A stretch of 32,000 nucleotides of DNA, taken from positions 126,547 through 158,546 of the forward strand of contig SUTQ01000001.1 in the NCBI GenBank assembly GCA_015062805.1, in the 5' to 3' direction. The notes beneath the pieces were generated by a model. That model was given only the letters and a program-made list of their open reading frames with translations, was not told the origin of the DNA and made no database searches. The position numbers were made by a program, and so were the translations under genes. Origin of the DNA: Methanosphaera stadtmanae. GTDB taxonomy: Archaea; Methanobacteriota; Methanobacteria; Methanobacteriales; Methanobacteriaceae. This document shows positions 19,630 through 21,380 of the stretch, piece after piece (within the stretch, counting starts at the first letter, position 1; the number at the start of each line of letters is the position of its first letter).

Positions 19630-20100
19630 TTGTTTATAAAAGTTAGAAGAGATACTTTAATCATTTTGATTTTGGCATTTATTTTAATTTTATCTGGTCG
19701 TGCAATGACCTATGTTGCATTTGCATCATCGGATAGTGTGGAAGATGGTGTTCCTATTGCAGGTGTCATGGTTAAAGGAAATGATATAGTGCCCGTCTCT
19801 TCAATTAAATCAAATGTAGCGGCAGCTGGATTTAGGGATGGTAGTTATATTAAAGGAAATACATTAATTACTTCACAACGACAGTTATTGCTGTCGGATG
19901 CAATTCAGAATGCAGAACAATTAGTAAAAAGATCAACAATTCCTGGAACATCCATTGCTCCAATAAATGTTGTTGATATTCAGGTTGACTCAAACACAGG
20001 TAACGTAGTAGTAAATGTTGTTGAAGATTTTTCAGTGATAAAAGTTAATAATGTTAACAATTCAACAGCAACTCATTCAACTGCTAATGTAGAAACCTGA
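19630..20100 (+). CDS. Small bitopic membrane protein, function unknown
   Basis: 156 aa with a TTG start 4 nt after AGGGGTGA. The basic N-terminus (KVRRD) is followed by one hydrophobic span (LIILILAFILILSG). After that comes a soluble domain containing VMVKGNDIVPVSSIK and an Asn/Val-rich C-terminus. Confidence 0.6.
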   Translation: MFIKVRRDTLIILILAFILILSGRAMTYVAFASSDSVEDGVPIAGVMVKGNDIVPVSSIKSNVAAAGFRDGSYIKGNTLITSQRQLLLSDAIQNAEQLVKRSTIPGTSIAPINVVDIQVDSNTGNVVVNVVEDFSVIKVNNVNNSTATHSTANVET

Positions 20101-20114
20101 TATTAGGTGATAAA

Positions 20115-21380
20115 ATGATGAATCATTCAAAAATTGCAAAAATATCAGTTTTCTTGATTTTGCTTATGTTATTTTCTTCAGTAGCTTCTGCAACTATGAA
20201 CGTTGCTGTAATAACTGATCCAACGGGGAAAGATCCAAATGGATGTGCTGCGGGAAGTCAATCCTTCGCATCAAATATGTTCCAGTCAACTTTCATATTT
20301 TCTCAAGATCATAAGACAGCTATACTTTCTGGGGGTGAAGGTACATCGGATGTTCGTATTGCTGCGATAATTACTGCATTGACACAACTTCAAGCAAATG
20401 CTTCACTTCAACAGATAGTGGGTGTTGCACAAAGCTTTGATGGTATACGTTTAATGGCTGTAAATCCTACTGAAGGTATTTCTGTAGGTGGGGATTTCCA
20501 AGTATATGTAATTACTGTTGATAGTAGTAGTACAATAAAAATTTTACCTGCAGCTGGTGGAGTAGTATCTGTCCCGGCAGGAACAAGAGGTGCAATTATT
20601 CACCTTCGTAATTCTGAAGGAAACCCTAAATCAGGAACTGCGGATAGAGTAAGATTGCAGACTGCTATGAATATTGGTAAAATGATTAGGGATGGATATC
20701 CTGCAACAACCATTGTGGCTAAAGCATTTGAAGAAGTTGCAAAAGATTCTGGTGAAAACCATGGTGGGGGTGCCGTAAACTTAATTTCTGGTGTTACTAC
20801 TGGTGATATGTTTACACCTGAGCAATTAAATGATGTAGGGTATGAAATGGATAAACCATATAGTAAAGTAAGTAGTACTGGTTGGAGTATTGGTTTCCCT
20901 GAAGCTAACAATTATCAAGTTTCTCCAGTAGATGGAACTCCATTAACAACAATATATGCATATGATGCACTTAAAAATGCAATAACTGTTTCTGGAGATC
21001 ATCCATCTGTATCCGTATATGGTAGTGATAAAAAAGGATTGTCAGAAGCAACAGCGGATATAGTATCTGCATCAGTTACTAGAAATGGGTATGATCCTAT
21101 TAAAATAGCAAGATCCATTAACCGAGCAATTGATAGTGGTACTCTTGTTGGTGTGGAACATATTGACACATCCGATTTAAATGTTAAAGAAAATATTAAA
21201 GCTGTAGGGGTATATTATACTCCTGCAAGTAATGGAAGAACAGCACCAATATGGAATTTACCTATAGATTCACAGATATTTGATGTTTTAGGAAACATAC
21301 AAACAATCATAGGTATATTACTAATATTATTAGCATTATTTAGGAGTACTTTAATTAAATCTTTCTTTAGAAGACGATAA
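20115..21380 (+). CDS. Exported, C-terminally anchored protein, function unknown
   Basis: 421 aa, starting 14 nt after the previous gene with an AGGTGA Shine-Dalgarno. It has a signal-peptide-like N-terminus (ISVFLILLMLFSSVASA) and a Gly/Ser/Thr/Val-rich body with a single Cys (C44, NGCAAGS). A C-terminal hydrophobic span IIGILLILLALF is followed by the basic tail RSTLIKSFFRRR. Confidence 0.6.
   Translation: MMNHSKIAKISVFLILLMLFSSVASATMNVAVITDPTGKDPNGCAAGSQSFASNMFQSTFIFSQDHKTAILSGGEGTSDVRIAAIITALTQLQANASLQQIVGVAQSFDGIRLMAVNPTEGISVGGDFQVYVITVDSSSTIKILPAAGGVVSVPAGTRGAIIHLRNSEGNPKSGTADRVRLQTAMNIGKMIRDGYPATTIVAKAFEEVAKDSGENHGGGAVNLISGVTTGDMFTPEQLNDVGYEMDKPYSKVSSTGWSIGFPEANNYQVSPVDGTPLTTIYAYDALKNAITVSGDHPSVSVYGSDKKGLSEATADIVSASVTRNGYDPIKIARSINRAIDSGTLVGVEHIDTSDLNVKENIKAVGVYYTPASNGRTAPIWNLPIDSQIFDVLGNIQTIIGILLILLALFRSTLIKSFFRRR

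Follow-up and report, generated by a model that had tools for sequence, protein, structure and literature searches.

A conserved gene pair of the pseudomurein cluster in Methanosphaera: a predicted POTRA-like protein and a putative threonine N-terminal nucleophile enzyme

The gene pair and its family assignment

The sequence studied, referred to as the window, is a stretch of 32,000 nucleotides (nt) from Methanosphaera stadtmanae (assembly GCA_015062805.1, contig SUTQ01000001.1, positions 126,547 to 158,546), with a GC content of 29.7%. We address here two adjacent genes of the Mfer763 and Mfer764 families, located on its forward strand after the last peptide ligase gene of a pseudomurein cluster. 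Fold predictions suggest a POTRA-like ectodomain for the first product and a domain similar to N-terminal nucleophile (Ntn) hydrolases for the second, with Thr27 as the candidate nucleophile. The pair is organized as follows (coordinates in the window; protein lengths in amino acids, aa).

19618-19625, + strand: Shine-Dalgarno-like AGGGGTGA, 4 nt 5' of the TTG start
19630-20100, + strand: Mfer763-family gene, 156 aa, TTG start (NF053641)
19648-19728, + strand: N-terminal hydrophobic helix of Mfer763, residues 7-33 (AlphaFold2, AF2, helix; hydropathy)
19750-20034, + strand: predicted POTRA-like ectodomain of Mfer763, residues 41-135 (AF2, Foldseek, profile match)
20105-20110, + strand: Shine-Dalgarno-like AGGTGA, 4 nt 5' of the ATG
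20115-21380, + strand: Mfer764-family gene, 421 aa, ATG start (NF053642)
20115-20192, + strand: predicted Sec-type signal peptide of Mfer764, residues 1-26, with ASA at its end (n/h/c regions, cleavage motif)
20193-20195, + strand: Thr27 codon, candidate N-terminal nucleophile of Mfer764 (predicted first mature residue)
20193-20789, + strand: predicted Ntn-hydrolase-like alpha-beta-beta-alpha domain of Mfer764, residues 27-225 (AF2, Foldseek)
20790-21269, + strand: second ectodomain region and juxtamembrane linker of Mfer764, residues 226-385 (lower model confidence)
21270-21377, + strand: C-terminal helix of Mfer764 with predicted transmembrane anchor and basic tail, residues 386-421 (AF2, hydropathy)

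The two genes are separated by a 14-nt gap and share the orientation of the ligase row. This arrangement, with a Shine-Dalgarno-like sequence in front of each gene, had been described in an earlier sequence-only reading of the window and is confirmed here.

Both products are assigned to NCBIfam families. Mfer763 aligns over residues 1-137 with positions 1-137 of NF053641 (Mfer763_fam; 221.2 bits against a cut-off of 170, E 4.5e-66), and Mfer764 over residues 26-417 with positions 1-393 of NF053642 (Mfer764_fam; 628.4 bits against a cut-off of 560, E 4.1e-189). Database homologues number 458 and 680, respectively, and the nearest relatives of both proteins are from Methanosphaera (87-95% identity). 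Because of these homologues and the NCBIfam equivalog matches above cut-off, the two are considered genuine genes and not chance open reading frames (ORFs). Judged by their matches, they are the Methanosphaera orthologues of Mfer763 and Mfer764, the pair of pseudomurein “gene cluster 2 / cluster A”. Relatives are encoded in 231 species genomes; locus-level counts given below rest on 80 listed loci of these 231 genomes, together with two metagenome contigs (82 in total).

The pair has been described before. Subedi et al. (2021) list it under the name “Con Pro” in pseudomurein Gene Cluster 2, and Lupo et al. (2025, PMC11915815) place it in cluster A as OG0001162/OG0001472, “devoid of known domains”; both papers regard it as conserved and specific to pseudomurein, with no function assigned. 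Both descriptions end at transmembrane or secreted proteins with unrecognised domains and unassigned function, and structure prediction is absent from both treatments of the pair. In the literature combining pseudomurein with POTRA, FtsQ or Ntn, no earlier fold assignment was found. The sequence-only reading had put the pair forward, from its position, as candidates for extracellular steps of pseudomurein assembly; since both papers and two NCBIfam models already cover these genes, that hypothesis is a rediscovery. New here are the fold assignments and the hypothesis of Thr27 as an Ntn nucleophile, while the gene pair itself was already catalogued.

Mfer763: membrane helix and predicted POTRA-like domain

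Mfer763 is characterized by a basic N-terminus, one hydrophobic helix and VMVKGNDIVPVSSIK, and it has no Cys. The features previously read from the sequence, including the V-x-V-K-G-N-x-I motif, are all present. In the AF2 model (predicted local distance difference test score, pLDDT, of 80, and about 88 in the ectodomain), the helix of residues 7-33 is followed by elements in the order beta-alpha-(hairpin)-alpha-beta-beta, comprised of strand 45-49, helix 56-65, a small hairpin, helix 88-100, and strands 112-119 and 125-132. The folded part stops at about residue 135 and is followed by a variable low-complexity tail.

A Foldseek search of PDB with the Mfer763 model ranked FtsQ (8hhf_Q) first (E 2.2e-3, probability 1.0, 128 columns including the helix). 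It was followed by about 40 POTRA chains of BamA, Omp85 and TamA, and the best 50 matches are almost all POTRA-containing. In addition, the family profile searched against PDB sequences matched BamA POTRA2 of H. influenzae (6j09_A; E 1.8e-5, domain i-E 0.0024), and this match exactly covers the V-x-V-K-G-N-x-I motif. Pfam POTRA (PF07244) was hit by 1 of 29 Mfer763 members (E 0.4) and POTRA_1 by none of the 29, and neither the window protein nor the aligned members matched Pfam FtsQ or FtsQ_DivIB_C.

The likeness to POTRA domains of FtsQ/DivIB, suspected earlier from the motif alone, therefore stands at the level of the predicted fold and, weakly, at the level of sequence through BamA POTRA2. 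As in FtsQ/DivIB, a predicted N-in membrane helix would be immediately followed by a predicted POTRA fold, and the gene is placed after murC/ddl-type genes in a wall-synthesis cluster. The likeness does not extend to the C-terminal beta domain of FtsQ (its FtsB/FtsL-binding part), as Mfer763 has only ~95 ectodomain residues. Unlike in FtsQ, the membrane helix is possibly a cleaved signal peptide, and the sequence signal is to BamA POTRA2 and not to FtsQ. We know of no FtsB, FtsL, FtsW or FtsI partners in these archaea. The model presents Mfer763 as POTRA-like with FtsQ-like architecture, and not as a demonstrated member of the FtsQ family.

Column identity in the Mfer763 alignment reaches 0.85 over residues 1-34 (0.82-0.85 over residues 10-34) versus 0.745 in the ectodomain. 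As no other part of the protein is as conserved as residues 1-34, a retained signal-anchor is favoured over a cleavable signal peptide, and the N-terminal helix is probably retained. If it is a signal peptide, the alternative cleavage site would be AFA|SS. Invariant residues within this segment include R6, D8, T9, L10, G23 and Y28.

Mfer764: predicted signal peptide and invariant Thr27

In Mfer764, a basic n-region and a hydrophobic h-region precede a c-region that ends in ASA|T. The signal sequence, the single Cys (C44) and the C-terminal helix with its RRR tail correspond to what had been recognised in the sequence before. Around the predicted cleavage site, 82/82 loci have the motif [AVSI][SA]A|T-x-N: Ala at -1, Thr at +1 and Asn at +3 are found in every one of them, and the residues at -3/-1 are small throughout. 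Codons for Thr27 vary among the loci (ACC 25, ACA 30, ACG 2, ACT 25). Column identity is 0.50 in the signal region versus 0.78 in the mature part.

The two metagenome contigs (L081, L082) share one divergent high-GC version of Mfer764 (40% identical), which is located in the same Ddl-like/MraY/pMurE/763/764 row and which we infer to be Methanopyrus-like. This orthologue is annotated from a start that lies too far downstream; translation in frame of the sequence before it (L081:4399-4465, and L082) gives MRALIPLIALLALVSGASA|TFN, in which the cleavage motif is preserved. ATG, GTG or TTG was not found in frame for this signal peptide, and an ATC stands behind GGGGGG; it could be a non-canonical start, or the two contigs could share an annotation problem.

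C44 is the sole Cys of the window protein. It had been pointed out earlier; at this position, 27 of the 43 aligned homologues have Cys and the other 16 have Ala, and a catalytic Cys was rejected because C44 is not conserved. No Cys is found among the 72 invariant residues of Mfer764 (45 sequences), unlike in cysteine transpeptidases and transglutaminases (PeiW-like, sortase, YkuD). The invariant residues include T27, N29, D35, D40, S48, S50, G73, G74, R81, R112, H163, N166, R192, D193, E214 and G217-219. Lipoprotein processing at a +2 Cys present in some homologues was also rejected, as the residue is Met in most of them.

Mfer764: predicted Ntn-type fold

The AF2 model of Mfer764 has an overall pLDDT of 72, with values mostly of 85-95 over residues 80-215, and lower near the N-terminus and over 167-186. 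Secondary structure elements of residues 27-222 follow the order 4E-2H-6E-2H-1E (E, strand; H, helix), and strand 1 is predicted to start at Thr27. The 4E-2H-6E-2H “nucleophile-first” order is the topology of HslV and proteasome beta, and the spacing between Thr27 and G73 equals that between Thr1 and Gly47 of the proteasome. An xxA|Thr site combined with strand 1 from Thr27 would give the hallmark arrangement of an Ntn hydrolase.

In a Foldseek search of PDB, the sole matches of Mfer764 at E<=1e-3 were the circularly permuted Taspase1 6vin_A (E 4e-4, 278 columns) and 9d03_A. Sequence order in 6vin_A confirmed that its chain begins with the Taspase1 beta subunit, Thr first. The next match was HslV (1yyf_C, E 1.2e-3), with a template modelling (TM) score normalised to HslV of 0.51-0.54, and proteasome beta, GlmS and EgtC were found as well. 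In the viral library BFVD, the highest probability was that of a phage proteasome beta, GATase-II came lower at low probability, and none was significant. Taken together, we consider it rather probable that the N-domain is an Ntn-hydrolase-like four-layer sandwich. The sequence-only reading had recognised no catalytic family in either protein; for Mfer764, this has to be revised, with a predicted Ntn-hydrolase-like domain and an invariant Thr at the predicted signal peptidase site. Pfam searches of both proteins and of every member of both alignments yielded no meaningful family.

For comparison with family T2, a profile was assembled from 13 plasmid-borne bacterial isoaspartyl peptidases. Its hhalign score with the Mfer764 profile is weak (P 0.011, probability 3-4%): 1/200 column shuffles scored as high, and the reversed-profile control gave 14.6 versus 24.1 for the real one. 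Over 215 columns, the two profiles align colinearly in the beta-then-alpha order, with G73-G74 against T230-G231, and R81 against R238, of EcAIII. This signal may be taken as supportive, not as proof. Among the alignments with single sequences, one at noise level had the EcAIII nucleophile opposite G218/G219; it was rejected, since the family profile did not reproduce it.

Upstream of Thr27, the sequence is that of an ordinary variable signal peptide, and not of an Ntn-type autoproteolytic activation site. Without autoproteolysis, Mfer764 would differ from most Ntn families; the mechanism is not refuted by this difference.

The region following the N-domain (residues 226-385) is modelled with a pLDDT of 35-80, yet its column identity is 0.75; it includes a conserved VGVYY strand at 362-367. 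A CxxC...CxxC insert is present in this second ectodomain in 12/80 loci (strict pattern) and absent from the window protein. The insert is zinc-ribbon-like, at residues ~250-275 (window 20862-20939; e.g. P0241, P0244, P0245); the window protein has Ser, Thr, Ser and Asp in place of its four Cys, which are substituted in most other listed members as well, so that such an extracellular zinc ribbon would be dispensable in most lineages. The C-terminus is predicted as a helix of residues 386-420 (AF2) with a hydropathy peak at 399-419 and an RRR tail, and has a column identity of 0.78. The membrane helices of both Mfer763 and Mfer764 are conserved at least as strongly as the soluble domains, which hints at specific intramembrane contacts, either mutual or with a polytopic enzyme. 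Invariant residues of segment 386-421 include G400, L406 and R410.

Comparison with known Ntn enzymes

Mfer764 would have two features in common with T2 enzymes (Taspase1, EcAIII, glycosylasparaginase): strand 1 begins with a Thr, and helix 1 is preceded by a Gly loop, which aligns with the T230-G231 oxyanion loop of EcAIII. T2 enzymes act on side-chain (iso)peptide amides, a chemistry similar to that of the gamma/epsilon isopeptide bonds in pseudomurein. Differences include the chain order, which is beta-then-alpha in Mfer764 and reversed in natural T2 precursors, and the release of the nucleophile, by autoproteolysis in T2 and by predicted signal peptidase exposure in Mfer764. The substrate-binding Arg207/Asp210 loop of T2 has no counterpart in Mfer764. 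Mfer764 is in addition predicted to be anchored in the membrane, to face the outside of the cell and to carry a further C-terminal domain, and it has no membership in T2 at the level of hidden Markov models.

The T1 enzymes HslV and proteasome beta resemble the model in being nucleophile-first single chains, HslV having the best target-normalised TM score. Equivalents of T1 Lys33/Asp17 are not conserved in Mfer764, its predicted location is extracellular, and there is no sign of the T1 ring assembly.

In B. anthracis, the envelope-associated Thr-Ntn enzyme CapD acts as a transpeptidase that links a gamma-glutamyl polymer covalently to peptidoglycan (PMC8062742). The likeness of CapD/gamma-glutamyltranspeptidase (GGT; T3) to Mfer764 is a functional analogy only, with no sequence relationship; CapD is self-processed into two chains and does not appear among the Mfer764 fold matches.

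On bacterial plasmids (L089, L090, L091), a T2 isoaspartyl peptidase gene is located between the genes for cyanophycinase and cyanophycin synthetase, the latter an ATP-grasp plus Mur-ligase-like enzyme. Isopeptide synthesis by Mur-ligase/ATP-grasp enzymes is repeatedly paired there with a T2 Ntn enzyme, in parallel with the pseudomurein cluster.

Distribution and gene neighbourhood

A profile search of 1.84 billion cluster representatives (E<=0.001) returned only 62 matches, 2 of them full-length and the rest short pieces of the family profile. No recognisable distant relative from outside the family was among them, in line with the restriction to pseudomurein-containing archaea expected earlier. 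Three longer matches (P0245, P0254, P0255) were inspected and consist of Mfer764 pieces joined to unrelated sequence, with tails that are radical-SAM-like or glycerol-3-phosphate-dehydrogenase-like; these are probably assembly or gene-call chimeras and not true fusions.

The 80 listed loci are from Methanobacteriales according to their titles, except for generic “Methanobacteriota” or “archaeon” labels and one “Methanomicrobiales”. The record of the “Methanomicrobiales archaeon” (L052) contains a complete pseudomurein cluster with the layout of a Methanobacteriaceae locus (L043), and its title is probably a taxonomic mislabel or reflects a binning error.

In the window, the neighbourhood of the pair is comprised of the following features.

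12223-13386, + strand: Ddl-like ATP-grasp gene (NCBIfam NF053643 Ddl_archaea, 8.3e-166, 551 bits against a cut-off of 500)
13701-14786, + strand: archaeal MraY-family transferase (NF053644 MraY_archaea, 2.6e-150; Pfam Glycos_transf_4)
14804-16267, + strand: pMurE peptide ligase (NF053648, 4e-196, 652 bits against a cut-off of 600)
16453-17904, + strand: pMurD1 peptide ligase (NF053646, 1.9e-183, 610.4 bits against a cut-off of 610)
17873-19438, + strand: pMurC, last ligase of the row (NF053645, 5.5e-217)
19446-19482, + strand: oligo-T runs (T5, T8), then a TTTATATA box at 19475-19482, in the 191-nt spacer
21420-21785, + strand: DUF356 gene, downstream neighbour of the pair (PF04009, 3e-34)

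Mfer763 and Mfer764 are adjacent in 79/79 loci with upstream sequence, and MraY and pMurE are located upstream of the pair in 59 of the 65 loci with an upstream flank of at least 5 kb. The coupling to ligase genes on which the sequence-only reading relied is accordingly frequent, though not universal. In the six other loci (L056, L062, L066, L069, L070, L074), MraY/pMurE were not found in the available upstream flank (5-9.5 kb). Upstream neighbours in one of them (L069:5322-9195) are a TIGR04083 peptide-modifying radical-SAM enzyme and a Wzm/Wzt (TagG/H-like) polysaccharide ABC exporter.

DUF356 follows Mfer764 in nearly all 80 loci, and the block Mfer763-Mfer764-DUF356-aMBF1-PAN is intact even in loci with ligase genes elsewhere. 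The unit may include DUF356 as a third member, located in the cytoplasm; alternatively, DUF356 may be just a stable neighbour.

The spacer between pMurC and the Mfer763 gene is AT-rich and 191 nt long. Its oligo-T runs and TTTATATA may represent an archaeal terminator and a TATA box, and the pair may have its own promoter and a long 5' leader; the number of TTTATATA motifs in the AT-rich window does not exceed chance expectation.

Proposed role and alternative explanations

Combining these results, we propose for Mfer764 the role of an extracytoplasmic Thr-Ntn amidase or transpeptidase that is tethered to the membrane and becomes active when its signal peptide is removed, with Mfer763 as a POTRA partner or scaffold; a probability of about 0.5 is given to this interpretation. 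Mfer764 would be exported by an ordinary Sec signal peptide, and a signal peptidase cut after Ala26 would leave Thr27 as the free N-terminal residue. Thr27 would then start strand 1 of the Ntn-type sandwich, with a putative G73-G74 loop at the position of the oxyanion hole, while the second domain and the C-terminal anchor would hold Mfer764 on the outer side of the membrane. There it could form an acyl-enzyme on the pseudomurein stem peptide. Passing the acyl group to an amine on an adjacent stem would give cross-linking, and passing it to water would amount to trimming or remodelling. The part of Mfer763 would be that of a non-catalytic scaffold or of the POTRA partner of Mfer764.

Substrate and reaction are suggested in this form because the stem peptide is rich in isopeptide bonds, T2 enzymes prefer side-chain amides, and CapD provides a precedent. 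The stem has been described as Glu-gamma-Ala-epsilon-Lys-Ala with gamma-linked Glu (Subedi et al. 2021). In its most specific form, the proposal would make Mfer764 the cross-linking Thr-Ntn transpeptidase of pseudomurein, a sequence-orphan nucleophile-first lineage activated by signal peptide removal and working with an FtsQ-like Mfer763; this version is tentative, and we regard it as unlikely to hold in full.

Several observations weigh against the proposed interpretation. Both folds were predicted from shallow alignments (effective number of sequences, Neff, ~2), and the Foldseek E-values of these models, 4e-4 for Mfer764 and 2.2e-3 for Mfer763, are borderline. At the sequence level, none of 43 Mfer764 members matched an Ntn family (T1/T2) in Pfam at E<=10, NCBIfam yielded no Ntn match either, and the Mfer764 profile gave 0 matches at E<=10 among all PDB sequences. 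In hhalign comparisons of this profile with single sequences, the EcAIII beta subunit and native and permuted EcAIII remained at noise, as did E. coli HslV (probability 0.1%). An invariant Lys equivalent to proteasome Lys33 is absent from the N-domain. SignalP results in the supplement of Lupo et al. 2025 (PMC11915815) report a signal peptide in 2 of 4 Mfer764 reference proteins, and classify the N-terminus of Mfer763 as a cleavable Sec/SPI signal peptide and not an anchor. The six loci in which the pair is unlinked from ligases, all from Methanobrevibacter, point in the same direction, and the oligo-T/TATA-like spacer upstream may mean that the pair is transcribed apart from the ligases. Finally, published proposals favour transglutaminases, encoded at unlinked positions, for cross-linking (Lupo et al. 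2025, PMC11915815).

This published assignment fits an explanation in which Mfer764 is an Ntn-type hydrolase (autolysin, stem-trimming enzyme or recycling amidase) acting in opening or maturation of the sacculus, and transglutaminase-like proteins do the cross-linking. Its nearest matches, by fold as well as by profile, are to hydrolases (T2 isoaspartyl peptidases, Taspase1, HslV), and bacterial T2 peptidases adjoin cyanophycin synthetase and degrade its isopeptide products. However, the pair is strictly single-copy, universally conserved and sited with biosynthetic genes, Mfer764 is predicted to be membrane-tethered and not wall-bound, and Ntn enzymes of the GGT/CapD type transpeptidate. We hold this role to be doubtful, although present data do not discriminate hydrolysis from transfer by Mfer764. 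A little less likely again is that both proteins are non-catalytic, Mfer764 as a pseudoenzyme scaffold of Ntn-like or other alpha-beta-beta-alpha fold and Mfer763 as an adaptor, organising or regulating MraY, a flippase or a polymerase. In its favour are the unusual conservation of both membrane helices, which suggests contacts within the membrane, the protein-binding nature of POTRA domains and the role of FtsQ as a hub without enzymatic activity; furthermore, a classical Thr/Asp/Lys triad is not recognisable and catalytic families are not matched by sequence. Such a scaffold would leave unexplained the +1 Thr, kept in 82/82 loci and through all four codons, as well as the many invariant polar residues and Gly loops of the N-domain.

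The N-domain could also be another four-layer sandwich, for example a PPM/SpoIIE-like metal phosphatase acting on lipid-pyrophosphate or phosphorylated wall intermediates. PPM phosphatases 3pu9_A (E 6.6e-3) and 3ke6_B (E 9.4e-3) were ranked 4th and 5th for Mfer764, which also counts against an Ntn fold; the four-layer architecture is common to PPM, and ITD35-PTGK-D40 of Mfer764 presumably has a superficial likeness to the GDVSGKG metal motif. Ntn proteins nevertheless rank above PPMs and dominate the named matches in PDB and BFVD, and target-normalised TM scores are 0.51-0.54 for HslV versus 0.31-0.38 for PPMs. PPM phosphatases carry their metal ligands at two places, the loop that leads into helix 1 and the end of the strand that precedes helix 3. 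At the corresponding positions of Mfer764, judged from secondary-structure order, there is no conserved acidic residue, either before helix 1 (SGGEG, with E75 replaced by Leu in the divergent orthologue) or before helix 3 (HLRN). None of 43 members matched PP2C or SpoIIE in Pfam at E<=10, and a phosphatase appears quite improbable. We see still less reason to regard the pair as a generic envelope, adhesin or S-layer module that is near the ligases by chance. Promoter-like and terminator-like signals upstream of the pair are compatible with it, as are the six Methanobrevibacter loci, where linkage to DUF356, aMBF1 and PAN persists. On the other side, the 1.84e9 representatives contain no homologue outside the family, organisms named on genome loci and protein matches are Methanobacteriales, and the divergent Methanopyrus-like version resides within the same pseudomurein gene cluster. 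Foldseek searches with the predicted structures, of the kind proposed earlier as a check, disclosed POTRA and Ntn-type matches for Mfer763 and Mfer764, respectively, and no adhesin or S-layer modules. Two independent published screens also agree on the link with pseudomurein (Subedi et al. 2021; Lupo et al. 2025).

The transglutaminase proposals for cross-linking have annotation as their sole basis. To our knowledge, no enzyme has been identified as polymerising or cross-linking pseudomurein on the outer side of the membrane. The fold assignments turn a conserved hypothetical pair into a hypothesis focused on a single residue, Thr27, and that of Mfer764 suggests a relevant chemistry, formation of an acyl-enzyme on isopeptide-rich stem peptides. 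They also bear on how far archaea have a counterpart of the logic of the bacterial dcw cluster, with its ligases, MraY and an FtsQ-like protein. If the cross-linking role were true, wall cross-linking would be performed by a fold that is not used by penicillin-binding proteins, L,D-transpeptidases or transglutaminases. The pair would then be a specific anti-methanogen inhibitor target, selective for rumen and gut methanogens, as members of the family occur only in Methanobacteriales and Methanopyrales.

Minor observations on flanking genes

The pMurD1 score is right at the curated cut-off, and the 3' end of pMurD1 overlaps the start of pMurC by 32 nt. Both genes are absent from the corresponding cluster in several genomes (e.g. 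loci L020, L025, L031). Two antisense ORFs, at 19213-19446 (- strand, 77 aa) and 20600-20911 (- strand, 103 aa), overlap pMurC and Mfer764, respectively; lying wholly within conserved genes of the opposite strand, both are most likely spurious.

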